From Phoronis australis (taxonomy: Eukaryota > Animalia > Phoronida), in assembly GCA_002633005.1 (NCBI GenBank), contig NMRA01000114.1, positions 147,570 to 211,569 of the forward strand: a DNA stretch of 64,000 bases, written 5' to 3'. Below are positions 17,750 to 61,320 of this stretch, one piece after another. The notes under the pieces were generated by a model. That model searched no databases. It had not been told where the DNA came from and saw only the letters and a list, made by a program, of their open reading frames with translations. Positions within the stretch are counted from its first letter, which is position 1; every line of letters starts with the position of its first letter. Position numbers and translations under genes: made by a program.

Positions 17750-17874
17750 TTACGTACAGCGACATGTACACCATAATCCCAGGCTGCAGTATCCGCCCTT
17801 TTTAGCGCCTTTTCCTTTGCAATCGTAGTAACAGATCCGTTCATAACAATGTGTGTACTCTCTTTCCTGTATAT
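17750..17874 (-). CDS. Defensin-like gene A, coding exon 2: (D)IQEREYTHCYERICYYDCKGKGAKKGGYCSLGLWCTCRCT*
   Basis: Acceptor tcctctatttcag| at 17875. The phase-1 join with exon 1 is in frame to TAA at 17752-17750. Cys spacing C-x4-C-x3-C-x10-C-x5-C-x-C-x-C contains the CxxxC, GxC and CxC motifs of CSab defensins. Confidence 0.9.
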
Positions 17875-17976
17875 CTGAAATAGAGGACATTATTCACTTG
17901 CAACACAGTCGTACTTCATTCTTACATTTCTAACGGTGAGTACGCATTTTCACCGATCATTATCAATTACATGTAG

Positions 17977-18154
17977 CAGGGGTGGATGCAGGATTTTGAG
18001 TTTGGGGGGCAGGCCAGATTATTATAGAGGATTTTTCCGCGGGAAAAACGCACCTTTCCAAACTGCCTTTTGGAATCTGGGGAATTTTTAGGGGGTGCAT
18101 TGCCTTCCTGCCCCCCCCCCCCCCCCCNCCCCCCCCCCCTTCATTCCGCCACTG
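17977..18154. mobile_element. Small MITE-like insertion with a poly-C tract in the gene A intron
   Basis: CAGGGGTGGAT...ATTCCGCCACTG ends. Absent from the paralogous intron near 57160. One N at 18128. Confidence 0.6.
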
Positions 18155-19294
18155 ATTACAGCATCCGTGCAGCTCGTGAAGCATACAAGTTGACTAGCAC
18201 AGTGTTGAAGCTTTCACTGAATAAACGTGTCCATGTTACTCGGGAAGGTCACGGAATCTGCGATGGATTTTTTCGTTTTAGATTCTTGGTGTACGTAGAC
18301 AACAGGTTTTATGGCTTAAGAAAAACCATCATTAATTCAATCTTAATTTGAAGAAGGTTTTGAACCTGGCAATTTTAACCAGGTGAACATCCGGTCAACA
18401 TAGCTTACCATAGGTAATTAGACAATTTGTTATCAACTCGTAATTTCATGAATATTTATTTACCTTTATAACGTAGGTGCATATCATTAATCGAGATTTA
18501 ATAACCAACAGATATCATCACGTATGTTATATAACATATTTTCACATATACCCAAACGACTTTCTGAGGTGCAGATTCGCCTAATCTGTCAGTGATAGTG
18601 AAGCGACGATAATTTGTTTCAATTCTTTTTTAAAGTTTCTTCGAATTAATGAAATAACCACAATCAATAACTTGTTTTAATTATTGACTGTTTATTCATT
18701 TTAAATTTTCAAACAGTGGCACTGTGTAACATTAGGCATTCTTTTTCCGTGTTGTCATGGTAACCTTGGATGTAAGATCAATCATTGTGTAAACAATATC
18801 TAGTACTTTTTTATGTTTTTATCATAATTTTTCATCACTTTTCAATTTCTATTAAAGTGTAGATTAAATGAGCGTCACGTGATATACCTTTTGAGTTTTT
18901 ATTTCATTTTTCGTTATTCAGTATTTCAGTATAAAAAACTCTGAACACGTTTTGAGAAGTTGATGGCTTCGATATTTTAGTTTGTAGGGGTAAAAGATTT
19001 CCATCTCGGTCAGAAATATTCTGAAACCGATTTGATTTGAGAGAAAGTCCCAATTCAGTTTTTGTTTTGGCCATCTATACCGTAGGACGGAATGCAGTTT
19101 TAAATTTGAACTGTTACCATTGTTTCACGTCATAAACTTGAAGAGACTCTTGTTCTTAAGACGCAAGGAACTAGCGAAAACGCGAAACTTCCCGAGATAT
19201 CCCGAGGCATTACAAATAATGCCTGTGATCACTTTAACTTTACTTGCGAAATTCTTGCAGAACCCGCCCCAGAGCACTGAGTTATTGTTCTCAC

Positions 19295-19376
19295 CGACGT
19301 CTTTGCCATCTATCGGCAGCGCCTGAAGGCAGCCCACAGCCAGCATCAATATAATGAATACCGCGATACACTTCAT
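19295..19376 (-). CDS. Defensin-like gene A, coding exon 1: signal peptide plus propiece MKCIAVFIILMLAVGCLQALPIDGKDV, followed by a phase-1 intron
   Basis: ATG at 19376, a basic residue, a hydrophobic core and an L-Q-A cleavage-type motif. Donor G|GTGAGA at 19295/19294 lies at the same position as G|GTAAGT in the paralog. 70 of 82 nt are identical to 61320-61239. Confidence 0.9.
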
Positions 19377-19690
19377 GACTTCTGGTTTTCTGTAATTCAG
19401 TCAGTTTCAGATCAAGTTCCGAGAAACAAGTATGTAAAAGAAGAAACAAGTATGTGACATTAAAACAAAATGCAAATAAACGTTTGCAAATCTTTTGAAA
19501 ATTACTCTTCCGTTTTATCACGTAGAAATTGAAACATATGCGGATACACAGTTTTCTGCATACCCTGTACCTAAGATTCAGTTGAAAAGTCAAGTATCTG
19601 CACGAGTCTCTGTGAACGGCCTACTTCCATCTTGTGAATTGCAGATTTGAAAAACGCCTTGTAACTTAACAACAAGCAGTTAGTAGAAAA
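19377..19690 (-). promoter_or_regulatory. Conserved 5' region of gene A: candidate 5'UTR intron, non-coding exon and promoter
   Basis: Aligns by eye with 61321-61650. Both copies have ctgaattacag|AAAAC(C/T)AGAAGTC-ATG, an acceptor-like site 13 nt before the ATG. Possible GT donors lie near 19570 and 61520. Confidence 0.5.
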
Positions 19691-20784
19691 TACATAATTT
19701 ATGCTAGTGTAAAATAACCTTTTAGAAAGTTGGTATTTCGGAACCTTTTAAAGGAGGTGAAGAAATTTAGACAGTTTGCCTCGTCTGGTGGCAGCAACTA
19801 GAAAATCAAAATTCCCATTATTTAACATTTGATTCCCAATATGCAGCGTATCTGGGACCAAATACTCACCTTTTCAAAGCCTACCCTTTTCAAACACAAT
19901 CCTGGGAAAGTGAGCCTTCTCTAAAAGTGTGCTGCAACAATTGAATCTTAGCCTTAAGCCTACTTTTTATTTCTCAAAATCGACGAAACTGACTGCAGTT
20001 TCCGAGACAGAGTGCCATCTATTCGCTCAAAGACGATACTGCTTTTCCCAGCACTTCTTCGGATTTTGCAGCACTACACGGAGCTTACGGTTTGACGAAG
20101 CTGAATTAATTTACGCTCACACACTCCCTATTAATGCTTACATTCCCGCAGGTCTTGGTATGACAATCGCAGTAGGGTGCATGTGAGAAACTGCTGTCTA
20201 GGGATGTAATCGGTGTCTAAGGAGGTACAAGTAGAATCAAATCATCTGTGGCGGAAGCAAAACTGCGGTCGACGGAGGGAGGTTGCACTCACATCTACTT
20301 CGCCCTCATCCACTTGACACATGTAAAAGCAAATTTCCTTACGCCTGTACGTGACTTATTCTGGCTACCATACTTACCCTGTTGTCTTCGCTCCTTACTG
20401 CAAGGTTATGGATTACTAATAATGTATCCCGTTGTATATTCTGCCAACTGTAATGAAGTAGAATACAGTAATAGAATTACTAATGTGATGGCGTTAATAA
20501 TGGTGTAATTTTGGTTGCATATATTGTCATTACCGGCTACACTTGACGATGTTGAGATAATTCCGGCTCATAAAGGTCCAAAAATTCAGCAGAACACATT
20601 CTGAATTTTAAATTTAGATATCAATATTTAAAACTGAAATTTAAACCAGTTTATTACAGTAGTTACGCATCTTTCACATATATAACCAGATACCAACACA
20701 CAAGACGAACATTTGGTTAGCTTCATCACCGAGTCCATACTTTAAACAATTAAGACGGTAAGTTGATGAAAGCAAAAACGGCAT

Positions 20785-22563
20785 AGACCCTATTCACGCC
20801 GACAGGAGGCGCGTTCCAAAACGAGGCTCGTTACGATAGCTCTGATAGCTTATCCGCGTAGTTGTACTCCGCGTTGCTCGAACAGCTAGAAAAAATACGA
20901 ACACTCTGTTTTACAATCCCTAACGACGCAGGGATTCGGAAGCGTTGAGTCCTTGCCATACACCGTGACGAAGGAAAATGTGTCCGTGTAAATTTCATAA
21001 CTGTTTTCGAATCATAATTTGTCGCATTTCGGAATGGATGCCGCCATATATATACGAGGACCGGAGAATCTTCGGCCAGCCAGGCTGTGTTTTCATGACT
21101 ATGGGTTGAAGCGCGATGCATTTTTCTTTACAAAAAAGGACAGGGCCCTCAATCCCTCAATTTTGGGGCCAAATATCGGCCCTATTCTCCTCTCAAAAAT
21201 ATTGAAAAATCACGCGAAATTCCCGGCCACGCGGGCCTAAAAATCCCCTATGTGAAAATTTCTCTCCAACGGTTCAAATCACCTGTGACCACAGAGGTGA
21301 CAATCTGAAAAAGTACAAAATCATAGGCGGATTTAGGGGGTTGGACAGGGACCCATCCCTCCCTCTTGACTGCCGCAAGGAAAGTAAACCAGCAAAGCAT
21401 GAAGCGAAAGGAAACTTGTACTCAGTGAGTTCGAGCTAGGACCGGCAGTGGACGAGGGGGGAAAACAGGTTCCGTTTTATTTTTTTTTTTAGTCCAACGA
21501 CAGATTTCCTGGGCATAAGGTATACATCCTCGGCGCCCGCAACTTCCGAGCCGCCTGCGTGCATACAATCGCGCTTTGCCCGCTTCTCCGAGGATGTTGG
21601 GCTCCCCCTCACAGTGGTATCCTAGATCAGCCATTGAAAATGCTACTTGAGACAGAGCTATGGGAACTTGCAAAAGGGCGGGGTGCTATTGATGGTGATC
21701 GGGAGGTCAGTAGAGTTTCACTGACCCGTCACTCGGCAAAACGTTCCTCTCTCAGAAGGCTGCACACTTATGAGGCACCTTTCCCCTCGGATGTGAACGA
21801 GGCCTCTGAAGAAACATGATAACTATACTTGTTCCAGAAGGGATCCAGGACTTTGAGTTGGGGGGCACGGCAGAGTATTAGCCAGGATTTTGCCCGTCAT
21901 AAATTCGCGCTCCTGAACTGCCAAATGGAATCTGGGAGAATTTTAGGGGGGGGGCTGGGGCATAGCAAATCAAAATATATATTTAATAACATCAAGTATT
22001 ATTTCAGATCAATGACAAAACAACTGACAGTCCCGGTAGTGCCTACCTCACCAGGACCTAGACTATGCTTGAAGCTAATAGGCCTACTCTTCATCAACAA
22101 ATTAAAGCAGATGAGACTAATTGCACATGACAGTAAAATGCTATGAGCCACCACTGTCGAATATATCTTCAACTCCTCAACAATACGACCAGATGACCTG
22201 GTTCGTGTAGAAAGCGTTTTTATCAAGAATTTATTGGAAGAAACGTAACCCTGCATTCAGCATGATACCTAATCCGTAACACTACGATCGCCGGAATTTG
22301 GTCATGTTTACTTTTCATGTTTCGAGCCTAGTTTTCCGGAAAAAACTATATCCTTTCGTCAGACAACTCTTTGGTGCATTGACTTGTTCTTGAACTGTAT
22401 TATCTACGTCTCTGTGGTTAATTATTGACACATTTTTTTAACATTTGATATTCATGTTGGACTCCAAAGACCGGTCATTTAACTCACACAATGTAAATTT
22501 CCGCTTTGTTTATCGCAGTGAGCCTCGCTTTGGATTTTAATGTCCGCCGCGTGAATAGAGTCT
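20785..22563. mobile_element. Non-autonomous TIR element with AT TSD (ISL2EU/Harbinger-like)
   Basis: AT-AGACCCTATTCACGC ... GCGTGAATAGAGTCT-AT. The superfamily is inferred only from the ends. Confidence 0.7.
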
Positions 22564-22629
22564 ATATGCAGCAGTACCATTAATCAATCTTGATATTTGC
22601 GTTGGGTGAAGAAAAGACGTGTGTACATG

Positions 22630-22633
22630 TGTG

Positions 22634-22678
<45 letters not shown>
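22630..22678. repeat. (TA)n microsatellite
   Basis: Directly visible. Confidence 0.95.
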
Positions 22679-23914
22679 CCCATACGCGTTGAATCTGTCG
22701 AGAGAAATACGGCCATGTAATAAAGTTTTCCGTAATCATCTCCCGCATTACTTCAACAGTGAACTCAGACATGGAAAGTTCAAAAGGTAGGTCATATGTT
22801 GACTCGACGTCTTCAGCCGGTTCAATACTCAAACTTTCCGAATATAGTTTAAAGTAATACAGTTGCGGCAGCGTAACTAACAGTCGCCATGCAACCAGGC
22901 CCTCAACGTAAAATCTGGAACAAAACTGTTAATTATAAAACACTTATGTCTCAGTTTTCAATTACTGAATACTATGTCGTCTGAAACTAAAACATCAAAT
23001 GTTGTTTTTTAACTAGTTGCAGGTTACACGTTCACTGAACAGTTGCCGTTGTTTAAATCTTTGTTAACTCTTTTCAAGTAATAAATCGTTATTTTTAAAA
23101 CTGTTTATTTTACAAGAGAAAACTTGCAACCTAACGCGCAAGTACATACATATGGGATGTGATCCGCCATGTGAACAGTCTGGGTGAAGTACATGTAGCT
23201 GGCTAGATAGGAAGGCTCTAGCTTCGAAAAATTTTTCACTGCGAAGTTGACAACAATTTCAGAATGATGATGGATGATGGATTACACTATAAACCGATCA
23301 CAGTCTTCCGTTTTCATGCGCCCATGATTTAATATCGGCGCTATGTTCAAACCATTGTTTATATTGTTCCTAAAATAAACTTGGGTTCTATTGCTGTACC
23401 AACATATTAAGAAATTATACAGAAATAAACAACAATTATCTGTGGTAAAGCGCAATATACAGCGTGACGAAGTGATGATCAAGAGCAATAACGGATGAGC
23501 GCAAATGCGTGCTGCTTGTTGAGCAATCCGCGGCATGAAAACATTTGAGGTCGTAAAATATCCAGTGTTGTATTCTGGTTTTTATGCAATTTTGCTGTAA
23601 ATTTCAAATTTCGTGCTTGTTTTTATGCATAATGCACTGCATAAAAAGTCTGATATCTAAATTTAGAAATTATTTTTCCGCTATATCACTTAACTTTTGA
23701 TTTTACCACGCCGTCATTAATTCAACATAAGGTATTCGGCTTGTGTAATGCCACGCACTTCGTATTTGTAGGTTGATTCGATTTTACCTCCATTTAATAG
23801 TTGAACAAAATTTGATAAACCGATGTCAAGACCGGAGTTGCCACTGGTAAACGAACAGCGAACAGTTAAATGTTTGTTTGTCCAAAGTTCACCCGCTAAG
23901 TCATAAAATGCTAA

Positions 23915-24110
23915 TTGCCGACCAAGGACACGCTTAATCCGAATTGGTCGTCTACGCTAGGCGACCAATTAGCCGACCCAAGTGCCGACCACAGAGGCGA
24001 CTAAGCAGACGGCTCCTAGCCGACCGTTGTTGCTCGGCTGGTGGTCGGCTAGACGACCGGTCGACGGCCGGTCGTCGACCAATTTCCGACCGGTCGGCCA
24101 AAAATTCGTG
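23915..24110. repeat. GC-rich palindromic MITE-like segment with (CGAC/GTCG) repeats
   Basis: Nested palindromes such as ccgaccggtcgg and accggtcgacggccggt. Confidence 0.55.
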
Positions 24111-24374
24111 ATGTGTGCTGTATTTGAAAAATCTGCCGAAAAATGTAAGACACTAAGGAATTCGAAGCGCATGGGATAAATACAAAACATACCTCGATTG
24201 GCGTACAAGAAGTAATATCCCACTCGACCTTATTCCGCGTATTGACCTCGACCTTCGCTCTCGGTCGATACGCGGAATAATGTCTCGTGGGACGTCACAT
24301 AACTTCATGTACATGTACGCCACTCTCGGTACCTTTTGTGTATACATACTTTGCTGTGCAACGCAATCTACATA

Positions 24375-24770
24375 TCACCTAAATAAGCATAGAGTACTTC
24401 GAACTCCAGTCAGCTGCTCATTCAAACTGGCTTTTTCAAACATTAGAAGCGACTCTAACGTTCGTAACCTGTGTACATCATTTTTAATGTATCTAATGAC
24501 TGTATTGTCGACAATCTCCTGACGAGTCATCTTGCGACCATGGACGAAATGGGCTTTTATGGAGCCGTTTTGTAAATGCATTGAAAGTCGTCGTGACAAG
24601 GAACATACAGTGTGCCCAATGTAATTTCGTTTCTAATGAGGAGGGAAACATTCGACCGCGGGACAAGTAAACTCATAAACAGCATTACATCAAGCAACAG
24701 TGCGGACCTACTCACTACTAATATTGTTTCTCATTACTAAATTAGAGGTCTTCATATTCTTGTAATTCTA
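24375..24770 (-). mobile_element. Penelope-like retroelement GIY-YIG endonuclease 3' fragment
   Basis: Manual translation gives YKNMKTSNLVMRNN..AVYEFTCPAVEC..NYIGHTVCSLSRRLSMHLQNGSIKAHF..RLRTLESLL..SLNEQ, with in-frame stops. VYxFxC..YIGxT..RxxxH is the Penelope GIY-YIG signature. Confidence 0.85.
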
Positions 24771-25150
24771 CTGGCAAACTAGATGTAATTATATTATTAC
24801 ATAATGGTCTTATTTATTATTACTCTACTTTTATTTATGTAGTGAGTGTTATTTATTAATTCATACTTACTTTATTAAATCTCTTTCAGCCCCAAAAGCA
24901 ATAATATAAATAATACTTTTTAACTAAACATCATTCAAGAATGATTGGACTGTCTCCGGTCAGTCCAAGAGTTATTACCTCTGCTGCTTGGTTTAAGATC
25001 TTTTATAGGCCTAACTATCAGCAATTCCCGTACCAGGATGAATTTCAAAACTATCTTGACTTGTTTGCGTCACACGTGATGTGCGACGTCTATATTGAAA
25101 GTGCGCCATATTTTTACGTTGATTTCCTTTGTTGGATTTCGGAAGAGAAA

Positions 25151-26000
25151 TATAGATCATTACATGGCGAAGTCGTCATCCCCCGTTATCTAGAGCCCGA
25201 TTGGATTTTGGAGAATTATCGCCCGAGGAGCGTTAGCCCCGAGGGTGATAATTCTCCAAAATCCACGAGGGCCCTAGATAAGGGGGATAACGACTGAGAA
25301 CATGTAATAAACTATTCATACCACCATAGATTATAGACAATGATACCACATACTAAACGAGAAACATTGCATTGAATGGATATACCTTTCTCGACTCGCC
25401 TCGGCTTTGTAACTACTTTCTATGTCAGAGGCCCGGAGTCGGAGGTCGTGACCTTTTAAGAAAAGCCGAGCTATTTTTGTCAAAAAATGCTTGTACTCGA
25501 AACCTATTGGAAATTTAAACAAAATAGAAATGAAGTGAATCTGTAAATTAAGGTTTAGCAACAATTATAGCTTACTACACATTTTATCACGCCAAGCTTC
25601 GACCGGGAAAATATCGTCTGCTAAAGTAGGTTACCACTAGTAACTGACTATAATACTCAAGTCAAAATGATCCCGCGACACGATACCTGCATTCAAATTG
25701 GAGATCGGTGATTTACAAGTGAGAGAACACGAGAGAAAAATTTCACGGAATTAAAATATCGTTTTTATGGAAATTATGCGTCATATTTTTCATAGCGTAT
25801 AAATGTCGATGCAATGTCCTTTGCTGAACATGCGATTGTTGCGCGTGCTCATTTAAGTATTCTATTTTCACGTTCGATGACGTCAGCCGCTGAGTGGTGT
25901 AGTGGTAAAGTCGGCGACTCGAAACTCTTGAGGCCCGGGTTCGAAAACGGCCTCGGTTTCCCAAAATGTTATCTCAATAGTGAGATAATTTCTTCAATAA
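25151..26000 (+). mobile_element. MITE-like composite element with a long palindromic left part (25155-25310). An internally deleted copy lies at 57470-57630
   Basis: tacatggcgaagtcgtcatcccccgttatctagagccc ... gggccctagataagggggataacgactgagaacatgta is an imperfect inverted repeat. 57470-57630 joins the same start directly to the 25870-25990 segment. Confidence 0.7.
25886..25960 (+). repeat. tRNA-derived (SINE-head-like) segment, second copy at about 57526-57600
   Basis: A-box-like TGGTGTAGTGGT and B-box-like GGTTCGAAA at tRNA-like spacing. The stems are degenerate. Confidence 0.65.
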
Positions 26001-27804
26001 CGTTTCCATTCAAGTCATTGTGAAAAACTAGCTTGATAAAGAAAACCTAGATTATATCCACCATTATTCGAACACGTACTGTTCAGAAACCCGTGGTGGA
26101 ACCCCAAGGCAGTGTTCTCTATGTATAACTCTTCACGAGGGCTTTAGGCCACGCTCATTTGACACAACTCGTAATTTTCCGTACCACGTTATTAAAACAT
26201 GTAAGTTAAGCTTTAGAAACGAATTCCCTGCAAATGGAAATTTTGTCTTTTCTTCACTAGCCTAAAATCATGCAGCCGTATATAGTGAGCAGTAATGTTC
26301 TTACCTGCTCAGTCAGTAACCACTGTTGCGTAAGCTGTATGAAACAATCCTTAGACGATGCTTTTATTTAAAGAATATAACCCCTCCTCCACTTTTTGAT
26401 TGACTGATACTTGGAGCATCAATCCTAATCTAGGAAGCACATTGTTTAACCAATCACACATCTCATTCATCATGAACGATTCAACATTTTCTCGACGTTA
26501 TGCTTTTCATCGCTTCGTAAAGTTTTCTAGAAGTTTGAACATGTCACCCAAGCGAGTACCTTTCTATTGCCAAACGCACATAAATTGGGCGGCGCAGCAC
26601 TGAAAAAAATGGGGACTAAATCCTCCCAGCCACCTTGTGGCGCACCGCCTAAAGACCTTGGGCCACGTAGCACTGAAAAAGTGGAGGGGCTATAGCCTCC
26701 CCGCCCACCCCCCTATGGTTCGCCGCACATTCTTAATTTTGCAGTCCTACAGTCTAAGCAGCGCTTGATAAGTTGGTCATGTTCTTAGAGTGGCTTATTG
26801 GGTTGGTCGTGTGGGAAATTGGGAACACCGAAATAATATGAATTCTGACATAAAACTTGAAAAATATGTCTTTTATCTGACCTTGTAAATATTGGGAAGA
26901 GTATAAAGCTTTGGTTTATTTATAGTCAAGATTGGTTGAGTTTCATCAGCTTTAGAAACACTCGATTTCAACCATAATTCAACTGAGATTTTTTTTCCAA
27001 TCAGCGAGCTGCTAGGACAAGTGTGTGGTTCGAATTGTGTAAACTGGACAATCTCACAAGAATCTTTAATACAATCAACAGGACATGCGATGGAGACGAT
27101 TGCAAATATGGCAGTGACTATCCACAGATCATCGAACTTTGGAGCGATAGCCCATTTTATTTTGTTTCAGTTTATTTTCAAAGTATGGTTAACCCTCCAA
27201 GGTTTTAGCACACTCTGGTATTACTATATGGAGTAATGGTTACGGTAGCGTCGCACTTTGATAGACGAACATTTTATTGAACGAGCTGGCGTTTGGCGGC
27301 CGTTCAACTATCCGCGCGTATTCCTTCCGGAATGGTGTGCAATTGATTAATCGGAAATAAGGATTTTAAAAATCGTTTGATACTATGAGGCAGCATGACA
27401 AAAATGATATGTCGTTTACCGGGCACGTTGTGTGTTGTAGCTAGTCACATTCTATCGCAAGTTATGTAAGGACTCGGCTTGCCAACGTTAGTTCCTCGCA
27501 AGAGGATCGGGTGAGTTTTTAATTTGTATTACTCTGTTATCGAAATCTCTTGGAAATTTTAGTTTATCGAAGATTCCGCCAATTTTAAAAAGTTGCAAAT
27601 ATATACAATCAGATAAAATATTACTTCAAGTCATTTCCCGACTGAATAGATGTATTTCCGTCTGAGTTTGTAATTATGTGAGCTCACTCACTTATAAGCA
27701 CGCCTGATTTGAAAGTTCGGTAAGAGGTAACCTGAGAACGTTCTCTTTCTTATCACGGGCCGCTCTGGTTACAATGTAGCGTGTAAGTACGCTCTCAATC
27801 AAGA

Positions 27805-35105: not shown

Positions 35106-35305
35106 GTTTGAAAACAGTCCTGCATGTCATTAATGTTCAACAAATTTTTGATACCGTCTATCCAACCATTTCTACAAGGAGCAGAGTACTCCTATGGAAT
35201 TTACTGTCATTAAAAATCTTCGCAACTACTCCGTTTTTCAACTGGAATTGCATCAGAGCCAAACTATTACAAAACCCTTACCAGAAACAAAATTTAATAA
35301 TTTAA

Positions 35306-37028
35306 AGGAGAATGCCAACCAAAAAAACAACCTATTTTGTATCAATTTAGATCTAGTAGTTCTACTCCATAACGGCACGTTCGGTTGCGTTACCTAACAC
35401 CTGACGGCAGACGGAGGTGTTGAAATTGTCCAATGACGTAGTTGGTTTCACACGCAGCCTGTTCAGCAGTTCAAAACACGGGTCAATGGTGTCAGTTTAT
35501 CGCGTGAATTCTTTGTTTAACACCAATAAATCATCAAACGTCGATGTAAAACCTTTAAAAATACACCGAGTTCTTATAAAAACGAGTTGTTTTATTTTCC
35601 TGTTACGGATTTACTGGTATTTGGACACACTGTAGCCTACAAATTTCGGCAGACCAATTTACCAAGGTCCGCAGCAGGAGTTTGGGGTATGTTCGGAGAT
35701 AAATTCAAATTATTCTTCCGTGAAATACAGACAGGAGAATCTAGATCTGTGTTGTTTATACTTGTGATTTTTTAAGCTCTAAACACACAAAACCCTTGCT
35801 CTCCCGGCCAGTAGCTCGGAACCCGAACAGGCCCGGCGTCGCTGCCGGACTGACTCGTTGGTCGGCCAGTGGCTCGGAACCCGATCAGTCCCGTCGCGGC
35901 CGCCGGGACTGGCACGAACATAAACCAGCTTGAGTTGGAAACTAAACCTTCAGTCACGAAAAGACTAAAATAATGAGCCAAAGAAATAATGTACACGTAA
36001 TTATTGATGTGAAATAGCCACGAAACTGAACATCTACTGACTTGTCGGGGGCCGCGAAGTCGGGTTCCCCTTCCACAGACCGTCATGGCAAAGGTTGTAC
36101 AGTAACAATGATTTTGAATAATGTATTTGTATTTCAAAATAAAGATTCCCCTAACATGTGACCATAGCATATAAAATCGAGTACTTGTTTCACAACAGCT
36201 TTCTGTCAGCGAACACTGAATTAGCATGCGCTCACACGGCCTCGTTGCCCGGTCAATTACGTTTATTGCCGGCATCAAAAGCCGATAACCCATTGGTTTA
36301 TTCATTGCTGCTCAACATTTGCACTCACGAATACTGCAAAGGCATTACAAATTGTATCTAATGAGACAGACTTTATTTCAGTTTTATGTAAGCATTGGTT
36401 AAGATGAGAAAAATTCATTTTGAAACATAACGCAGAATAATAAATGTCTACATGGCAACTCACCCGGCGCCAATCCCGACTTCGTTAGTCAAGAGCTCAT
36501 CCGACGAAGACTTAACGGGTCGGATCGTTAGGTTTCACAGGCTATCAATTCCAACCGGAATACACTGTTCGAAAAATACTAGAATGGCGCCGTGAACATC
36601 CATAGGAAACGGAACGTATGGATAGTTCTTTGGTAAGCCGGAATTTGTCAGATAAATCACTGTCGGCGAAATGCCGGTCACAGACACGGAGATGTTTCAC
36701 GGTCCCATACTTGCTATTAACAGCGTACGTTTCATTCTTCACCACCGCGAGCCGTTTCCTAAGCATTTCGGGCTCTCGAGGAAATCGAAGAAATGATATA
36801 CCCGCTTTCTTCGCAGCTTCGTAGTTCGGACAAGCGGGAACGATGCACCGCTATATAGCGGCATTCACTCTGCAGACGAACCATTGACGTCGCTACGTCG
36901 TTTCTCACCTTCCTCACAGGTTAACGCGACACCTCTTGGCAAAGTGAGGTCGACCGTATAAGAGGCAATGTGGATATAGGCCGATTAAGACGGTAAAAAA
37001 GACTAATTAAATCTGGTGGCATTCTCCT
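35306..37028 (-). mobile_element. Kolobok-like deletion derivative carrying a decayed THAP domain
   Basis: TTAA-AGGAGAATGCCA ... TGGCATTCTCCT-TTAA. Minus-strand 36600-36850 translates to RCIVPACPNY..ISFLRFPREPEMLRKRL..HLRVCDRHFADSD, a THAP C2CH pattern. Confidence 0.85.
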
Positions 37029-38479
37029 TTAATTCATAAGAATTATCATTAAAAATACGTTTTGTTGTCAAAACCAAGAGTGCTATCAAAATGCTATAAA
37101 TAACAGCGTACGCAACCTAAAAAGGATATGAAATAGAGAGGTTATATGAATAACCAGCTTAAGTGGATCATGGATCTTACATGCTAATGTCTTTTTCAGT
37201 GATTGCTTGTTCAAACTAGTTAGGAACACAACATATAACGACGATGTGAGTATGAAGTAAGTTGAAAAATGATAAATGTTTTAAGAACGATATTTGTGTC
37301 GAAAATGATCTGCCTTAAATCACTCCATCGTGTCCAGTAAGTATCGTGACGTGTTGTTTGGAAAAAACACTGGTTGATGCGGGTATTTTCCCCCACGGTA
37401 CATCATAAGAGCAACCCACCTGTTTGCAGATTTTTTGTTTTCACATTTACAAGTTGCTAATGAATACATCTGCACTTTGTTCAGAGGAGATTATGCTCAA
37501 ATGACATCGTCGTTTAGTTGCAGCTATGTATTAGCATAGTTAGGAGCAGTTAAATATATCTTTACGCCACTAGGGAAATTATTTCAATGATTCAAAAGAG
37601 TTCTACCATATAAAGGCAAACGTTTTTAAATGTGGAATTTAGTCTGATATTCATCCAACTTTATATATCTTTATATATTAATTGGACCTTTGGTGCTTTT
37701 CGATACTGTTCTTCAGTAAAACTTCAGGACGGAGTAACATATGACAAAATGCGATAAACTAATTACTATTTATCCGGAATTTGCACATAAAGACATTGTT
37801 GTGGGTAAAAAATTAGCAAACATCTGTTGTGCAGTTTCGAAACGTACTTTTGATAATAGATCAGTACATAGCCTGCAGTCGAGGACTTTTACGTAAACAA
37901 GAGACAATGGAACACATCATTACGATTGTAATGTTACTAAAAAGTAGGCTTTGGAAAATAAGCATATTCACAGTCATAAGAGAGACAAATGAACACTTGT
38001 TCCATAGTTGTCAACATTCGATAATGAAAAATATACAACTGAATTGAAAAGCGGAATTTCCGGATCTGGGTCTATGCCAGAACGCAAATGTTTGCCGCAA
38101 CAAACAAAAAACTCCCTTCAGTCTTTTCGTCGAACGGCGATTTTTTATTTTTGTAAATGGAATGTACAATTGCAGGTGCATTAAAAACTCATGAAACGAC
38201 CCGTTTATATTTTTAGTTGAGCGTGAAGTTGTGCTATGTCGCGTGGGAAATTACAGTAGCATATGATAATAAGTTATTGTTGCCGTTGGTCAAAAAGCAG
38301 GACATTTCCATTGTCAGGAGACATGGCGAGAAAAAGTTCAAAAAGTGGTGTCGTCCTCCAAGAGCGGGACAATAGGCAAATACAATGTCCACACAAAGTA
38401 TTGGATTTGATTTTTACTATGTAAATTTTTCATTTTTAATATTAACTCACAATATATAAGATACATTCCATGTTCTGAA

Positions 38480-44663: not shown

Positions 44664-46691
44664 AGGAGAATGCCACTCAAAACAGTCAAATTTTGCGTAC
44701 TTCCACATCAAGATTACTGTGACAAAATCTAACAATTGGCAAACGCTGGCATTCTTCTTCAATTAGAAAGACTGCAATACCAAGCAGCTTTAGCAATAAC
44801 AGTGGCATACAAAGGGTCCAACACAATCAAGGTTCTAAATAGTCTCAACTGGAGCAAACAAGCAACCCGTCGTAAAATCCACCTGTACATGTATACATTC
44901 AAAGTCTTAACCAACATAATTAATTTTTCTAACAAAATCCTCTTTGACTCCTACAAAAGACCAAACACGAAACCAGGACTATGGCAAAGCAATATGCACA
45001 CTATTCCATCTTCCCTCAGCCAAACCTTCAGGAGATCAACCATATTAGCTAGTACTGACAACTGGAATTCCTTATCATCCAAAATAAAAGAAAGCACTTC
45101 AATCGTCATTTTCAAAAATAACTTTACACGGCATACCACTACTCAAGACTTGCCAGTCCCATTGGCATCATTCCAACTTCCTCACAACCATGAAAAACCC
45201 TTATACAGATCTCAAGATGCGGTCTATTCCTAAGCAACGAGAAAAATAGACATAATTTTAATAATATTTCGCTTCTGTATTCCTGTGGAGACAGCCAGAC
45301 AAATGCTCATATTTTCTTTCCTTGTGAGGTATGCAAGGAGTAGAGGGTACAGGTTTTCCAAATACTCGAACAATACCCCAATGTTTACAAAAAATATTCT
45401 GAAATTCCACAATTGAGTAACAAAATTAATGTTTTTTCTACGTTTATATGGAGAGAACTCAACCCAAATGAAAATAAGGTGTTATTCAAAATAGTATCAA
45501 AATTTCTTTATAATATTAAATCTCTTTGTTTGAGTAAATAGAATTGTATGCATGTCTTTGAAAATGCATTATTTACATTCGTAATCATATATCATTGTAA
45601 TTCTTACATCATTTTTTTAACTTATGTATTCGTGTATAATAATTGTATATAGACTTCTTTGTAATTTCCTCCCAGATGTAATCCCTCGTTGCGCTTTCTG
45701 GGTTATGTATATTCATTGCATTCTGAAGATTTCGTAATAAACATTAATAAAAAAACTGCAAATCTACTTATATGTCGGGGGCCGCGAATTCAAGTTGCCC
45801 TTTTACAGAACCGTCAGGGCGGAAATTGCACCCGATGTGAATAATGAATTTGTATATTTAAATAAAAATTCCCCCTAACATGTGACAATAGCTTTTAAAA
45901 TCGAGTTATTGTTTCACACCAGCTTTTCTGTCAGCAAACACTGAAATAGCATGCCCTCAAATGGACTCGGTGCCCGGTCAATTACCTTTCTTGCATCTGA
46001 AACCGGTAACGCAGTGCTTTATTCATTGCTGGCTTCTCAAAACATTTGCTCTCAAGAATACTCTATAGGCATTACAAATTGCATCTAATGAGACAGACTT
46101 TGTTTTAGATCTATACAAGCATAGGTTAGAGTGAGAATAGTACATTTTGAAACATAACGCAGAATAATTAACAAACGTCAACTCGCAATCCCGACTAAGA
46201 CGAGAGCTCATCCAACGAAGTCTTCGCAGGTGGATCGTTAAGTTTCTAAGGCTTTCAGTTCGAACCGGAATACAGTGATCAACAAATACTAGAGAGGCGC
46301 CGTGCCGGCATTCGTCAGACTCGCTGTCGACGACTGCCGGCCCCAGACATGGAGATGCTTTACGGCCTCATACATGCTATTAACAGCGTTCTTTTCATTC
46401 TTCACTACCGCGAGCCACTTCCTGAGCATTCCGCACTCTCGAGGAAGTCGAAAAAGAGATATACTCGCTTTCATCGCAGCTTCATAGCTCGCACAAACGG
46501 GAACGACGCACCGCAGCATAGCGGCATTCACTCTGCAAATGAACCACTGACGTCGCTGCATCGTTTCTCACTTTCCTCACAGGCTGAAGCGACACCGCTC
46601 GGCAAGGTAAGATCGACCGTATGCGAAGTGATGTGGATATAGACCGATTAAGACGGTAAAAAAGACTAATTAAATCGGGTGACATTCTATT
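44664..46691 (-). mobile_element. Second Kolobok-like THAP element, interrupted or partly replaced by a LINE fragment
   Basis: Left end ttaaGGAGAATGCCA and right end TGACATTCTATT-TTAA. 45770-46690 aligns with 36040-37028. THAP relic MLRCVVPVCASY..ISLFRLPRECGMLRKWL. Confidence 0.8.
44736..45755 (+). mobile_element. 5'-truncated CR1/L2-like LINE (ORF2 C-terminus plus 3'UTR)
   Basis: LERLQYQAALAITVAYKGSNTIKVLNSLNW..RRKIH..WNSLSSKIKESTSIVIFK and an A-rich tail. The 3' end also appears inverted at 44310-44380, with a related piece at about 8490-8570. Confidence 0.85.
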
Positions 46692-46742
46692 TTAACAATG
46701 ACCAAAAAGTGGAGATGGAATTCTTCTCTAAAGTCACTTTAA

Positions 46743-53200: not shown

Positions 53201-56200
53201 AAAGCTGATGAAATGTGGAACTCTGTAGATCAGTAGATCGAAAAGAAGGAGAGGTGTCACAAAAGTTTGTGCAGAAAACAGCTGCTTTGCCCAACTAACA
53301 TATGACATGTCCTGCTATACTGCTGAAAGGACATAGATAAAAATTAAAAGGACATAGAAACGCATAGCAACGTTTCAAGGCACCAGCAGTAGTACTAAAG
53401 CTGAAGTTGCTGAAAGTGACACAGATGTTATCCAAGATTTCCCTACAAAATCAATTATACTTTCAAAATCTAAAACACGAAATTAACCAGAACAAGATTG
53501 GAACAGTCTGACACATGAGTAATGGTTACATCATTTGTGAGCAGGAAAAATGTTTTATCAAACACATTCCAAGAAAGAGGAAAAAGTAATAAATTTACAG
53601 CTTTTTAAAACAGGTATGTGTGTTTTTGAAAGGTACATCTCAGTGTTTTCCAAGTGTGTTCAGTATTTTTATCAATAGATTTTCTACTTGTTCAGCCCCT
53701 TGTCTGCACATGCCTTAGACAATACCGCTGGCCCAGTAAAGGTTGTGATCATACCACAAGTCCACAATATGCCGGATGCTTTTCGGCAAATTTTGCACCA
53801 CACTAATTAAGCCATCAGTCATGTTGCTATGAGTTTAGAAATAACTTTTCAGCATAGAAGGATGCCTTAGGAGGCCGTTAATGTTTTTATTTGTTCCCAG
53901 TTTCTACAAATACTCCTGCAGTCCTGTTTTTCGAACACTCCGTCATTCAGTTGCCTAATCAACACTGCTTGGGCCACGGGATAATCATAAGGCTTTATAG
54001 TGTGGGTGCGATTTAAGCACTTTAAGTCAAAAATTTTTGAGAATGCTAAATGGAGTAGATGGTAGCAATAAACATGCCCAAGTGGGGTAACCTCTTCTAA
54101 ATTTTTCGTAAACTTTAATTACTTAGGTGGCTGCAACACGTATAGGTACTATCTTACTACCCATGATGCAGGTGACAAGGTCTCAGTTAACTTCCTGTTT
54201 GTTAGCCGTTGCCCTTGACGAGATCCTCTTTAGAATCTTGCAAGAGTTGGACCTGTTGTACAATTTCTTCTGTACACTGTAGAAAACATTTTAGCTTCAA
54301 CTACTTTAAAATTCTTTTTGAGTATTTTGCATTGACCCCAGAACCAAAAAGATAAACATCATCGAAAAATAGATCTTGACCTCAAACATACATGTAAGCA
54401 AGTTTAACCCCATGGTTTAAAAGTACAAATGCACAAAGTTTGGGCAACTTAAAACGGAACCACGTGTACCAATTACTTAATCAAAAAATATTCTGTCAGT
54501 GTATGTTATTAATCAGATTTCCTCAAAGTCATGTAAGCTTTGTCATAATTGATATAAATGATATTTCTGCCTACGCGCTACTTCGGTGGGCACTTACATA
54601 TAGTCAGAAACTCGGCATATTGTGAATAGTTCAAGTTTGTCCACAACAGATGCATTCACGAAACTAATTCATGTTTTTGCTAGAAGAACTGATGCCGAAG
54701 CCTTTCAATGCTAACTTGTCACTGATTCAGCCGCGTTTTAAAGTTGATATTCATGGGTAGAGAGAAATGCGGCAATAAAGAGACAATTAAGATTCGCTTT
54801 GACAGATCTTTATTTTGCTTTAGTCAACGGTACATTTGTGTAAATGTCATCAATGTCATTGGTCTTTCACTAGTCTGAAAATGAAATTTAAAACAGTAAT
54901 TATGCAGTTACAGTGGTGATATGCTCGAATACAGAATGAAAGACACTTGTGTTGAATACAGACTGACCGAGTGGAAGAGTAAAGAATTGTCAAAATACAA
55001 GTCAGAGTTATAAATGTAGTTTTAGTTCGAAGAATATATTTCTGGCCACAGTGTCGACATATACCAGTGTCAAAAATTCATTCACAACTTTTAGAACTGA
55101 CTACAAAGTAATTTTCTCGCCTTTGCCAAGCCGACTATGCCCATTGGCATGAACCGGTCCCAAAAAGGACGGACCCAGCTAAGTTCATTTAATTTTTTTG
55201 TATTTGTGTCCCTATTTACTCACAGATGTAACTTTTCTCACTATTTGGTTTTGATAATGAGGTCTTTTTTACTAATAACATAATCTAATAATATACTTTC
55301 AAATTGCGCTCCAACGTCAATCAAAATAAGTAGAGACTTGGTCCTTAATTTAGGGACGCTGCATGAAAACCACACTACTTATTATCAATAATACTGGGAA
55401 TTTAACGTAGACCTCACTCTAGATTTGTATCAAATCCAACACTTCACTTAGTAATGAAACTAAAATAACACAAGAGAGGACAATAAGTGTTTTCAGAAAT
55501 TCACAAATACGCAGTAAACTTTTCTCAGGTGAGTCCCTATTTGGGACTGTTTCAGGTAACAGGGGACTTGCTCCTGGAGATCTGGCTCATTTTCTAAGGC
55601 TTTGCAGCTTTCGTCTATGAACACCGGTAGGCAGCAACGAAATTTTGTCGCGAAACATTCAGTCATCAATCTATAGTAGGAAGAGTATGCATAAAGCGGC
55701 TCTAAAACGTCGAATAAAAGCAATTTCGCAGAATAGTCCAGAAGTGGTGATTTTCCATTTTAAATTAGTTGTTCATCAAGATGTATTCATGGTTATCTCC
55801 GTCGTCAGAAATATCCCCGAGATTGTGGGGTCAAGTTAAGGATAATAACATTAACGTTTAAAATGATGAACAGATATTTTTTAAAAAACGACAATAACTT
55901 CAAGCTAAAGTATTCTCAATTTCTGGATCAGGCGACCTAACATCCAAACTCAGATTGGTCTAAGACTTGGACTCTGAACTTAGTCAATCAAGCTAGCTTG
56001 TCCAATAAGCCGCCACTAGATTCTGCACCACAAGATATGTCGTATGATTCCAGGCTAGTATTCAGTTACTGTCTCGGTGCTAGAGAAATCTTGCCCGAAT
56101 CACGTGTCCCCATTTCAATTACATTGCAATATCACGCGTAATCTCGTCGTGGTTTTCCATCGAGGCCCTAACGTTACATAACTCTACCCAGTATTGGAAA

Positions 56201-56348
56201 AGTAGAACCTTTAGTCGTATGTCTAAGATTTGGCAGGATCTTGGTTAGGTTAAAAAAGCGTGATAGGCTCTGGTCTGTGTTTTTGAGATTTGATGCAGTT
56301 ACACCGTATGCATGTAATTTTACACCTTTTGGAAGTCACATAATACGA

Positions 56349-56676
56349 TGTACTGAGCCACAACACAACGTTCCTTACAATATATTTTTATCACTCCGGC
56401 TGGTCTGCTCACTCAGCTTGTCCTCAATATGACTTGAAGGTTGTTATACCCCAATTTTCTCTTTGGTGAACACACTTGGTACTTTATGCATTGATGATAT
56501 TTCACAATTTGTTTTCCTCAACCTACTTAGTAGGCAATCGGCTATCACCCATTTGGTATTGTTTACCATTAGGTACTACAGTAACCTATACCACTGAGTA
56601 TCCTACACTCAATTACACAATGGGTATCGTAAATTTGTGTTATCTCTTGGAATTAAGGAGCCCATCTGTTGTTACA
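56349..56676 (-). mobile_element. Solo-LTR-like element just 3' of gene B
   Basis: TG...CA termini (minus strand TGTAACAAC...GGCTCAGTACA), 328 bp, three copies in the window. No clear target-site duplication (TSD). Confidence 0.5.
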
Positions 56677-56808
56677 TGTGTTTGTGGAGCTTTTGGGAAA
56701 AAATGCCAAAATTAATGGCGTTGAGTGCTGATTTTGAGACGTAAGCTTCAAAAATGTTTAGTCACAGCCCGAATCAATTTTTCTAGGTTATTTTGTTTTG
56801 TTCGTTTT

Positions 56809-56930
56809 TTACTTACGGTAACATAAACACCCGGGGGGAAATCCGGCGCAATATCCGTCATTATAGTTCCAACGTTTGCAATTGTCCGAGCAAATAGAAG
56901 GAGCACATCTGCGGAATCTTTGCAGTGCAA
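56809..56930 (-). CDS. Defensin-like gene B, coding exon 2: (V)ALQRFRRCAPSICSDNCKRWNYNDGYCAGFPPGCLCYRK*
   Basis: Acceptor tcctctgtttcag| at 56931 is homologous to the gene A acceptor. The phase-1 join is in frame to TAA at 56811-56809. Canonical six-Cys CSab spacing C-x4-C-x3-C-x9-C-x6-C-x-C. Confidence 0.92.
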
Positions 56931-58829
56931 CTGAAACAGAGGACATTATTCACTTGTAAAATACAGTCGCATTTCATTCTTACCGCTCTAGTGGTAATCG
57001 TGTGCAGTTTCACCCCGTGGCTGAGAGTCGGATCGGGGTGCAACGATGGAATAACAGGACCACAATGTAGAAAGTGACGGAAATACAGCTTGTTGCATAA
57101 CATTGTTGGAGGGCATGTTCTGAGAAGGAAAGACACGTGGGACTGTCAGATCATTATCAATTAGAGCATCCGTGCAGTTCATGAAGCATACAAGTTGACT
57201 ACCACACTGTTGAAATATCTCTAATTTATCTTAATCTGAAGATGATTTTAAATATGACCATTTCTGTCAAGGCGAAGTTGCGGTCATTAACATATAATAT
57301 GGATAATTAGACAAATTGTTGTCAAATGATAATTTCATGAGTATACATGTACACCTGTACACCATGTATACTTGCCTTAATATAGTATTAAAAATATCTG
57401 TCATATACTGTAGGTGATGATAACTGCATATCACGAATCGAGATTGTGATAACCCACAGATATACATATATAGATTATTACATGGCGAAGTCGTTATCTC
57501 CCGTTATCACGTTCGATGGCGTCAGACGCTGAGTGGTGTAGTGGTAAAGTCGACGACCAGAAACTTTTGAGGTCGGGGTTCGAAACTGGCCTCGATTCCT
57601 GCCAAAATGTTATATCACTAGTGAGATAATTAAATGGGTTATTACACGGTTGTATTGGCCATCCGAGGCTAATATTGTGGTATAAATATAGGTTATCCCA
57701 CATACATTGGAATACTGCTGCCATATTCTATCGAGAACACAGTTCATCTGGGAATGTCCCAACGAGACCCAAGGTCGCCAGTGGGGACACTCGCAGATGG
57801 AATGAATTCGAGATAGGATATCGCAGAAGTATTCCTATGTATGTGGGAAAACCTATTTATCCCTTATATTTGGACTTATTTGCATCATCGAGGCAATACC
57901 TTGTTGCCGTGTGATCCGACTTGTTGTTATATGACGTCATCTGTATGCCAAGTACGGTACCAAAATTGGTTAAGCTGCAAGACATTCTGTGAAAGTGTTG
58001 AATAACCAGTAAAGTTTTATTTTGTTATAAATTCATCGGAATTTTTAGATTGTGAAAGTTAAAGCATTGCACCATTCAATCATATCAAAAGTTTGTTGAA
58101 ACAATCCATCCGGGAATATAAAAATTGAAACATTGCCTGAACTGAGTTGTCTGCAATGGAGACCTTGTTGTTAGCTTCGATGAATTTCCTGGTCTATTTT
58201 CGTGTCTTAGCTTCTGAAATGTACATAGCAATAGAAACATTTCCCCGTGTTTATCACGGCATTGGGAAATAACGATGGAAATTGTGCTGATTTGCAAAGC
58301 ATGAGGTAAGGACTATCGCAAAGCAGAAGTTATACGCCACGGCAGGCGACGGAGAGTTGAGCGCTGCAAGCAGACGATTGCTTCAGTAAAAAAACACATA
58401 CTCGTTATTACGTCTTGATTTCCTGTAAAGACCTTAGATTCCATGGTAGATATACTGTATGCATCCATAACGAAACATTTTTGTAGGATTTGAATTAGAT
58501 TTTGGCAGATTTTACTAGCCGGTGACCTTACTCAGTTTGACCTACTTACATGTATGATGACCCAGATTGAAACTTCAGCAAAGCCCAAAAATAACCGCCT
58601 GATCACCGTGCGTCGGAATTTTCATCGGTAAATCTTTTCTGTTTTTAGAGCAGTAAAACTGCTTTTTCAGGAACGATGCCTCGAATTAATGATTTAGAAT
58701 ACGGCCTCTACCGTGATATACAGTGTACATGTGCGGATTGGCTCTATTTTCCCGTATATCGCAATTGAATACGTCACATATACAATGGCCATATTTTCAT
58801 ATATATGGGATAAATAAATTTAAAAATCT

Positions 58830-59190
58830 GGTGTTCAGATTACAATGATATGTGATTACGAATGTAAACAATTCATTTTCATTCACATGTACATGTATAC
58901 ACGTCTATCCACTCACACAAAGAGATTTAATATTATAAAGAATTTCATTTGGGTTGAGTTCTTCACATCCATATAGCAAAAATATAATTTTGTTGTACAA
59001 TTGCGGAATTTCAGAATATTTTGTTAACACTGGGGTGTTGGTTAAGTTTTTGGATGTATCCATGGACAGGTGGAGTTTACGACGGGTTCCTAGTTTGCTC
59101 CAGTTGAGACTATTTGGAGCCTTGATTGTGTTGGACCCTTCAGTGCATGCCCCTGTTATGGCTAAAATTGTTTGGTATTGTCTTTGAAAG
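58830..59190 (-). mobile_element. Deleted CR1/L2-like LINE fragment, same family as 44736-45755, in the gene B intron
   Basis: QYQTILAITGACTEGSNTIKAPNSLNWSKLGTRRKLH matches the 44736 ORF. Confidence 0.85.
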
Positions 59191-59837
59191 CCCTCCTCCA
59201 TCAGCTTTTACCGCGTCAGTAAGGCTGTTTTGAGTGTAACATAGTCCAGTGCATCAGCCATTGGCAGTCTGGTACAAACATGTAGGCCTTTACCTGTTAA
59301 TTGCCCATTCACTCTGATCCAACCCTGACTCTTGAGTATCTTTCAAACCTCTCCACGAAGTTGTCCATGTCCATGTCCTGCTTTTTATCAAACTTGGTTA
59401 GCTTCGACTTGACGCCACCAGTTGATCTAACATGGCTACCTTCGCTTCAACGTGGTCAGCTTTAAGTGCCGCTAGCATCCTCTCGTGTCCCACTCTTTCT
59501 CTCTCCATTTGCTGTTCAGTTTCGCGGGCTTGCCGCCGCTCGTCAGCCTCAGACTCTCGCGCTTGCCCTTTCCCTTCAGCCTCAGGATCTTGTTTTCTCT
59601 TCTCAGCCTCACGAGCTTCAGCTTGTTGTTTTTCAACGAAATGTCTAAGGCCGTCTCCCTGCAGACCCATTTCTGGTCCGAGGGCCATCAACTCTGTTAG
59701 TTGAGATCTTGTCTCCATAGTGAGTCGCTAATTCCAACAGTCCACTTTATCACGCCTTATTACCCGTCAGTAACCTCCTGGTGTGCTCCCCGATTAGCAC
59801 GCTTTTCCCCGCGTGAGGGTGAGGGCAGGTTGTTACA
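59190..59837 (-). mobile_element. Ty3/Gypsy gag 5' fragment in the gene B intron
   Basis: METRSQLTELMALGPEMGLQGDGLRHFVEKQQ plus an E/R-rich coiled coil, then KFDKKQDMDMDNFVERFE and QLTGKGL, typical of Gypsy gag N-termini. TGTAACA lies upstream at 59837. Confidence 0.75.
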
Positions 59838-61238
59838 GACCGGTGCTAATACATGTAGCTTTCGGCGCGACGATAGACTGAAGACTGGTTCGAATTAATC
59901 CGCGGCCAGAAATATTCTGAGACCAATTACATTAGAGATAAAGTCCTAATTCGATCTCCTTTCAGCCTGCTAAACCGTAGAACGGAATGTATATGCAGTT
60001 TTAAATTCGAAGTTTTAACAAAATCCAAATTTTATCCACTTCGCAAGCGCCACCAGACTCACCTTCGGCAGACGTAAGAAACTAGCAAAAACCCAAAACT
60101 TCGCGAAACATTGGAAAGCATGCAGTGTTTCCCCTGGGTTTTGAAAGGAGCGTGGTGGTGAATGCTTGATGCGGATGCGGAACCCGGCGCCACATGTGAG
60201 CATGGGATGAAGTGAGATCCACCCATCGGGGGCTGGGGGGGGGTTGGGAGACCTTCCCCAGGCAAAATTTGAAAATTAGATGTAACTGGATGCAATTTGC
60301 TCACCAAAGACAAGACCATAACTCGAGTCATGTAGTTGAAGTATCTGGGTAAAGGACACTTTTCAAGACAATTGGCAAAGTGTCCATAGTGTGATTTCTG
60401 TCGCAAAAAAACAGTCTGTGTTAAAATTCAATTATCTACGAAGTGGCAAACATAGAACAAAAACTATTGAACTTTGTAGACGTAATAAACTAATTCGTGT
60501 AACGAAACTTCCGTTGACATCGTCTTGCTATTATAAATCAGTGATAGTGGATTGGTGTTGGCCGGCGTCGCCGACGAATGCAGACGAATCTGAGACTGTT
60601 TAACATTCAATATCGTCATTTTGGCGCAGGGCTATGGTTGATTAAACTGTTGGATGTCACGCCCTGCAGTATATTTCACAATGTCTTTTGTAAACTCGGA
60701 CACGATGAAATGAATGAAGCAGAAATCTTACTGTTTCTTACCTCATTAGCGAGCCCTGGCGCTTTCCCGTTTTAGAAAATTCGCATCTAGGTCGTTGCAT
60801 GGTCCCCGGCTAAATTAAGTTTATACGCATTGTCGGATAACCAGGCAGAAAGGAGGTACAAACGGGAATTGGGATTCAATGATGGTGCGTAACGGGGGTC
60901 ACAATTCAAGATCCCGTTGTAAAATTATTGTTTTTCACTTTCGATCCACAAACGGCGAACGGTACCGTGTGACTTCTACTTATTCATTAGTACTAGCGAT
61001 CGTCTTCACTAGCGATCATTTTTACTAGCGATTTTTGCGTGGCGATGAAGTTTCGCGTCACGATTAGGTGTGCGGCGGTCAATTCGAGTGTGATTTACGA
61101 GTGGCGGGGCCAAAAAGGAGCGTGGCGGGCCGCCCAGAAGTTTACACGCAGGGGAATCTGAGCATTACAAGGACTGCACGTGATCACTTTAAATTCTTGT
61201 GGAACTCGACCCAGAGCACAGACATTTACTGTACTTAC

Positions 61239-61320
61239 CATCGTCTTCGCCATCTACCGACACCGCCTGGAGGCAGTTCACGGCCAGCATCAATAGAATG
61301 AATACCGCGATGCACTTCAT
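61239..61320 (-). CDS. Defensin-like gene B, coding exon 1: signal peptide plus acidic propiece MKCIAVFILLMLAVNCLQAVSVDGEDD, followed by a phase-1 intron
   Basis: ATG at 61320 and consensus donor G|GTAAGT at 61239/61238. 20 of 27 aa are identical to gene A exon 1. Absent from the ORF track because read-through stops early. Confidence 0.9.

Follow-up and report, generated by a model that had tools for sequence, protein, structure and literature searches.

Two small spliced genes, here called A and B, lie on the minus strand of a 64,000-nt stretch of Phoronis australis DNA (contig NMRA01000114.1, positions 147,570 to 211,569; hereafter the window, in whose own numbering all coordinates are given). 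From sequence and structural modelling we interpret their products as secreted prepropeptides that are likely cysteine-stabilized αβ (CSαβ) defensins and likely serve as antimicrobial peptides of innate immunity, the two being paralogs within a larger multigene family, and we assign this interpretation a probability of roughly 0.6. A and B apparently represent an undescribed, lineage-specific family within the CSαβ superfamily, that is, new entries in a known class, not a novel type of molecule.

Each gene comprises two coding exons joined across one phase-1 GT-AG intron. In gene A the signal/propiece exon (19295-19389) holds 82 nt of coding sequence (19376-19295, with the ATG at 19376) and is followed by an intron of 1420 nt (17875-19294; donor GTGAGA, acceptor TTTCAG) and a terminal coding exon (17874-17750) that encodes the rest of an acidic propiece and a seven-cysteine domain, for a product of 68 amino acids (aa). 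Gene B is assembled likewise from a signal/propiece exon (61239-61333; 82 coding nt, 61320-61239, with the ATG at 61320), a repeat-enlarged intron of 4308 nt (56931-61238; donor GTAAGT, acceptor TTTCAG) and a terminal exon (56930-56809) encoding a propiece that ends in RFRR and a six-cysteine domain, for a product of 67 aa. Blocks of intron and untranslated region (UTR) shared by A and B, including blocks of the B intron homologous to that of A, point to paralogy. This architecture had been proposed by a first-pass annotation of the window, with which our coordinates and translations agree to the base; its 82-nt exon, however, stands as the coding part only, since each signal exon probably starts 13 nt before the ATG at a TTACAG acceptor and would thus include ~13 nt of UTR. 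Both products are missing, as it had also noted, from the list of open reading frames (ORFs) of at least 100 aa. Its description of the pair as a tandem locus fits their common strand and spacing of ~36 kb, although profile searches found no third member of the family in the window, and most of the interval between A and B has the look of repeats and transposon remains.

Both splice junctions, for which RNA-seq had been suggested as a check, are crossed by spliced reads. Four RNA runs bearing the same species label were used, three of them as raw reads (X5, X6 and X7, with ~18-19% of each examined) and one as contigs only (X8). The A junction (19295/17874) is present in 43 exact reads in X5 (28 start places), 81 in X6 (43 start places) and 0 in X7, and the B junction (61239/56930) in 0, 2 and 6 exact reads in X5, X6 and X7, respectively; neither is present in the X8 contigs. 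First mates fall on the plus strand, as a standard stranded library would give for RNA made from the minus strand, and the terminal exon of A is covered to a depth of 45-94 in X5 and X6 and of 0 in X7. A further 51 reads in X7 make the same jump as B but differ at two letters where the exons join and extend over no more than 24 letters on the shorter side, and therefore come from an allele or a close paralog. Just downstream of B a repeat (56351-56668) displays strong plus-strand RNA (depth ~150 in X5 and X6), most of which stems from other copies of the repeat.

The motif C..CxxxC..GxC..CxC, on which the first-pass annotation had based its call, occurs twice in the six frames of the window, once at A and once at B, and was absent from 200 out of 200 windows simulated under an order-2 Markov model. 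Both products possess the CSαβ framework C...CxxxC...C...CxC, which corresponds to the defining framework in an excerpt of PMC5234102, and in both the gamma-core GxC reads GYC. Cysteine spacing is C-4-C-3-C-10-C-5-C-1-C-1-C in the mature region of A (seven cysteines) and C-4-C-3-C-9-C-6-C-1-C in B (six), with a short n-loop of 4 residues. The six framework cysteines and GYC of A are in register with those of B, Cys63 and Cys65 aligning to Cys62 and Cys64 of B, and the extra Cys67 of A (TGT) stands opposite an Arg codon (CGT). No alternative letter is listed at this codon in the reads of X5 or X6, so the seventh cysteine is not an assembly error. Its odd count is unusual, with precedent: CSαβ peptides are described with six, eight or ten cysteines in PMC7203481, and PMC5116183 notes odd numbers, with suggested dimerization, in some macin-like peptides and in scorpion LVP1.

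By hydropathy the precursors begin with a secretory leader (Lys2, then a hydrophobic core with a 7-residue mean of up to 3.7) that runs to LQA and is followed by the acidic propiece. The RFRR at the end of the B propiece and the RxRR of B-like paralogs are presumably furin-type sites. Depending on the cut assumed, the mature peptide carries a net charge of +2 to +4 and an isoelectric point of 8.3-8.9 (+2 for B after RFRR), and the whole propeptide a net charge of +1.

Divergence between A and B is concentrated in the part that would become the mature peptide. Their signal/propiece coding exons share 70 of 82 bases, and identity at the protein level amounts to 17 of 19 residues in the signal peptide versus 10 of 31 in the mature region. 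Bases differ at 102 of 561 positions in the non-coding flanks, at 6 of 57 in the signal region, and at 43 of 93 from the first Cys to the stop in a Cys-anchored alignment (Fisher p 2e-8 versus the flanks). In a free nucleotide alignment read in 30-base windows, identity was lowest at the propiece end and helix (47-63%) and reached 73-83% in the C-terminal hairpin, like the UTR; because the dip is confined to the propiece end and helix, divergence of the mature region is itself uneven. A conserved signal with a divergent mature region is the usual pattern of defence-peptide families, and lineage-specific families of Cys-rich peptides in which the prepro region is conserved while the mature region varies are already known (PMC4558851 and PMC3164099).

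The family is larger than A and B. Read depth over the A signal exon is 1150-1680, versus 45-94 over its terminal exon in X5 and X6, and 93-99% of the reads placed on A in the raw-read runs continue into unlike sequence; most signal-exon reads derive from paralogs outside the window. Manual translation of the loose-end consensus, which covers 30 letters of each, gave at least five other terminal-exon starts, some of which may be alleles. The start VALQRTRRI accounts for 1001, 1740 and 2329 loose-end reads in X5, X6 and X7 (11-13 million records), and the paralog bearing it is very highly expressed. DIQERNSGN accounts for 326 reads in X5 and 207 in X6 and is not listed for X7, while DIQEKNYEST, VATREFERC and VAVQRYRR each come from a single X8 contig. 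Two paralog groups can be told apart, one B-like and mostly with RxRR, the other A-like with IQER/K. X5 and X6 contain both A and the DIQERNSGN paralog, X7 contains neither, and the abundant paralog is found in all three runs; the absence from X7 may reflect a difference in tissue or condition, or genes that some individuals carry and others lack.

Reads from these paralogs also bear a short 5' sequence which does not adjoin the signal exon. On the minus strand, positions 20395-20372 hold a similar sequence that resembles the consensus of the paralog 5'-UTR loose ends and precedes a GTAAGT, and sense-strand depth is low over 19400-19800, upstream of the A signal exon, which fits an intron. For these two reasons gene A probably has an upstream non-coding first exon (20378-20420, minus strand, 5' end approximate; donor GTAAGT at 20377, TATA-like AATATACA at 20440) and a 988-nt first intron ending in TTACAG (19390). 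We also weighed a trans-spliced leader as the source of this shared 5' stretch but did not adopt it, given the genomic copy with a GT donor 988 nt upstream of the A acceptor. No counterpart of this exon was found upstream of B within the window, and the first exon of B may lie beyond position 64000. Homology of the region upstream of B to the first intron of A ends at ~61663; beyond it, at 62300-62900 (minus strand), a Cys-rich transposon-like frame is seen by eye, and such sequence may have pushed the first exon of B out of the window.

The first-pass annotation recognized neither sequence as a named defensin, and no homolog emerged from protein, metagenome or literature-text searches. Searches for relatives used single exons of ~40 residues and may have missed distant kin. 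A word-indexed protein search gave no candidate for the terminal exon of A (among proteins of 22-72 aa), that of B (22-70 aa) or the signal-exon pair (23-88 aa); a full HMMER search of the two-sequence profile against 1.84 billion representatives gave 0 matches at E<=0.001, a library size at which a 43-position profile has low power and distant kin may be missed. Exact look-up of exon-derived sequences returned 0 of 4 (the queries being single exons and not spliced precursors), the signal-exon DNA pattern had 0 matches in metagenome contigs, and five 7-letter peptide motifs received no mention in open-access paper text, figures excluded. Literature searches on dimers formed through an unpaired cysteine and on little-studied phyla likewise yielded nothing of use. 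At the sensitivity tested there is thus no relative in collections drawn from ~15 billion proteins.

The profile matches of the terminal exons, although all weak, are all to CSαβ families. That of B matched Gamma-thionin (E 1.4e-4, 22.5 versus a cut-off of 25.1 bits) and Toxin_3 (E 0.03), that of A matched Defensin_2 (E 0.12, 12.7 versus a Pfam cut-off of 20.4 bits), and an actinodefensin profile was matched at E 0.014-0.087. Against PDB sequences, a joint profile of A and B gave 11 matches at E<=10, all of them defensins (plectasin variants, ARD1 and the scorpion defensin BmKDfsin3; best E 0.064). The six-cysteine, short n-loop defensins of invertebrates and fungi (ancient invertebrate-type; Pfam Defensin_2) are therefore the sole matches of this profile, and they resemble A and B in cysteine framework, GYC core, signal-propiece-mature layout and cationic mature peptide. 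The likeness is incomplete, however, in that the best E was 0.064 with the Pfam cut-off unmet, the n-loop of A and B is as short as the range of 4-16 allows, and A has a seventh cysteine.

Three further groups provide partial parallels. The eight-cysteine mussel and oyster defensins, myticins and mytilins have the CSαβ fold in common with A and B, and their tandem paralogs vary most in the mature region, as A and B do (PMC3164099). Unlike these, A and B possess seven and six cysteines, whereas eight is the criterion for mollusc defensins, myticins, mytilins and nematode ABFs in an excerpt of PMC5116183; in addition, their mature peptide is preceded by the acidic propiece and lacks a C-terminal extension. 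Scorpion short-chain potassium-channel toxins (BmBKTx1, cobatoxin; Pfam Toxin_2) also have a short n-loop, and their genes have a phase-1 intron close to the leader, as in A and B, and in some cases a 5'-UTR intron (PMC5308243, in part), but A and B lack the KCxN motif, are ~28-36% identical to these toxins and gave no Toxin_2 profile match. The phase-1 intron, offered earlier as a supporting trait, is indeed present in both genes, but it is weak evidence because such introns are a general feature of secreted proteins, as stated in the same excerpt of PMC5308243. Mussel CRP-I is likewise a lineage-restricted multigene family with conserved prepro region and hypervariable six-cysteine mature peptide; its C-C-CC-C-C array, which likely forms a knottin, requires adjacent cysteines (excerpts of PMC4558851 and PMC10138031), and these are found in neither A nor B.

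The fold of B is predicted to be a helix plus hairpin. A single-sequence model (mean predicted local distance difference test, pLDDT, 69.7) places the helix at 11-20 and strands at 23-29 and 34-39. Foldseek returned 158 matches at E<=10, the top rows being short toxins of scorpions and defensins from plants, insects, fungi and mussels, with a best template-modelling score (TMq) of 0.69; MGD-1 of mussel scored a TMq of 0.69 to the model. In VIA-align 53 of 48,161 chains reached Z>=2, with NsD7 (Z 4.2, root-mean-square deviation (rmsd) 1.9, 35 residues aligned) and BmBKTx1 (Z 4.2, rmsd 1.0, 31 aligned) ranked first, and the closest shapes are those of the scorpion short-chain toxins (rmsd 0.8-1.2 over ~31 residues).

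A number of results weigh against our interpretation. The search of defensin profiles proposed by the first-pass annotation did not bear out its assignment at curated thresholds: no Pfam or NCBIfam cut-off was reached by either terminal exon, and B gave no Defensin_2 match. For the B model, Foldseek gave 0 matches at E<=0.001 and VIA-align no chain at Z>=5 among the 48,161. The single-sequence model of A is all-beta and without a helix (pLDDT 66.6, predicted template-modelling score 0.39), and it matched no CSαβ chain; Z was 2 or more for 16 of the 48,161 chains and 2.7 at best. The helix plus hairpin that had been expected of both peptides is hence present in the B model but not in that of A; on the first-pass annotation's own terms this speaks against A, although a model of such low confidence is unreliable. 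We infer the CSαβ fold for A because, while its low-confidence model lacks the helix, its framework stays in register with B and its weak matches are CSαβ. As a full transcript B is weakly supported, because its exact junction reads number 8 and the bin with its last 43 coding bases and UTR has no sense coverage in X7 (depth 1.15 in X6). In the mature region the proportion of synonymous differences (pS 0.62, over 18 synonymous sites) is not lower than that of nonsynonymous ones (pN 0.42), so the divergence of A and B there may reflect either rapid change or else flanks that were subject to conversion; positive selection on the mature region was rejected as an explanation, pS not being below pN. 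Feature matches in a language-model atlas (0.83-0.84), which we treat as leads only, are headed by scorpion short toxins. Excerpts of the literature add that six-cysteine spacing is unable to separate toxin from antimicrobial peptide (Tarr, PMC5116183), and that families with the same prepro/mature pattern or framework have no antimicrobial activity or a suggested loss of it (PMC4558851, PMC10138031 and PMC5234102). Taken together, the defensin-like assignment draws on spliced paralogs, the framework with its GxC core, the B model and the larger family, and is held back by an A model without helix.

Were A and B such defensins, the hydrophobic leader of ~19 residues would be cut off near LQA (position 19, by eye), and the acidic propiece, which would offset the charge of the mature part, would then be removed (after RxRR in the B-type). 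This would release a cationic peptide of 32-35 residues with a net charge of +2 to +4 and three disulfides (C1-C4, C2-C5 and C3-C6); the seventh cysteine of A would be either unpaired or employed to link two chains. Because the charge is modest, a specific envelope component such as lipid II would be a likelier target than charge-driven membrane lysis. Plectasin and oyster defensins bind lipid II.

That same low charge, +2 for B after RFRR, would also fit these CSαβ-fold secreted peptides having a non-antimicrobial role in protease or enzyme inhibition, immune signalling, anti-parasite defence, or gamete or tissue recognition. The weak matches include tick RaCI2, a complement inhibitor, and AtLURE1.2, a pollen-tube attractant. 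Mussel CRP-I, moreover, has the same prepro/mature pattern and is described as without antimicrobial activity in excerpts of PMC4558851 and PMC10138031. Yet the nearest profile matches are antimicrobial defensins, for which GYC-type cores are typical (PMC5116183, in part), and positive evidence for any particular other target is lacking, and we regard such a role as possible though unlikely.

A more far-reaching version of the defensin interpretation would have A and B belong to a large, independently expanded CSαβ family in a lineage without reported six-cysteine defensins, with a single leader serving two processing classes (a B-type cut at RxRR and an A-type with IQER/K), members that only some individuals possess or express, and A as a seven-cysteine defensin acting as a disulfide-linked dimer or with a free thiol. 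Annelids are named as a lineage gap for typical six-cysteine defensins in Tarr 2016 (PMC5116183). We consider this full combination rather improbable.

A toxin or ion-channel-modulating family on the CSαβ scaffold, deployed in venom, mucus or anti-predator secretion, would explain the short n-loop of 4 residues, the scorpion short toxins that head both the shape and the language-model comparisons, the very high expression of one paralog, the single PDB sequence match of A (a fly venom defensin-like peptide, E 0.24) and the weak, sub-threshold match of the signal exon to the profile of a conotoxin family (E 0.008-0.036). The shape likeness, however, follows from short loops and the conotoxin match spans just 13-16 signal residues. 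The KCxN motif, which serves as toxin criterion in part of PMC5116183, is absent from A (GYCSL) and from B, whose GYCAG is the same as a Leiurus defensin motif in that source, and we find a toxin function doubtful. It is most improbable that A has left the CSαβ fold through its seventh cysteine and loop changes, with another disulfide pattern as the helix-free model might suggest, and that B is a weakly expressed, decaying copy, as its 8 exact junction reads, incomplete X7 coverage and lack of an A-like first exon in the window might suggest, since the framework cysteines and GYC of A are in register with B, a single-sequence model at pLDDT 67 cannot be relied on, neither frame is broken, and the first exon of B may be beyond 64000.

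The window (~39% G+C, CpG observed/expected 0.87) gave 0 matches in Rfam and tRNA scans; this composition, the spliceosomal introns and a THAP transposon remnant are consistent with an invertebrate host. A 97-codon open stretch on the minus strand (26876-27166) with a hydrophobic run, two cysteines and the string ISVELWLK has the appearance of a secreted-protein exon or its relic, LamG-like in character, and has no Pfam match. Two diverged copies of an element (36023-37032 and 45753-46695, 77% identical) contain a THAP-domain frame (E 1.9e-10 at 36548-36850) and are likely P-like transposon relics; the THAP ORF had no match among phages. A weak GIY-YIG match on the minus strand (24378-24632; E 0.02, below cut-off) is possibly a Penelope-like retroelement relic. 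A palindromic satellite with an 18-20 nt unit around AACTTAAGTT (~25 copies) occupies 13830-14405 and 16758-16873, and a palindromic 53-nt tandem repeat with (TA)n cores closes the window (63826-64000).

As seen here, A and B extend a known superfamily and introduce no new mechanism. They illustrate how small multi-exon immune effectors slip past ORF-based surveys, and their conserved leader exon provides a ready probe for the whole family. The CSαβ scaffold has yielded antibiotic leads such as plectasin, and the peptides described here are expressed and short enough for synthesis and assay. Their significance would be greater if the host phylum is one without reported CSαβ defensins, or if the odd cysteine of A gives a covalent dimer.

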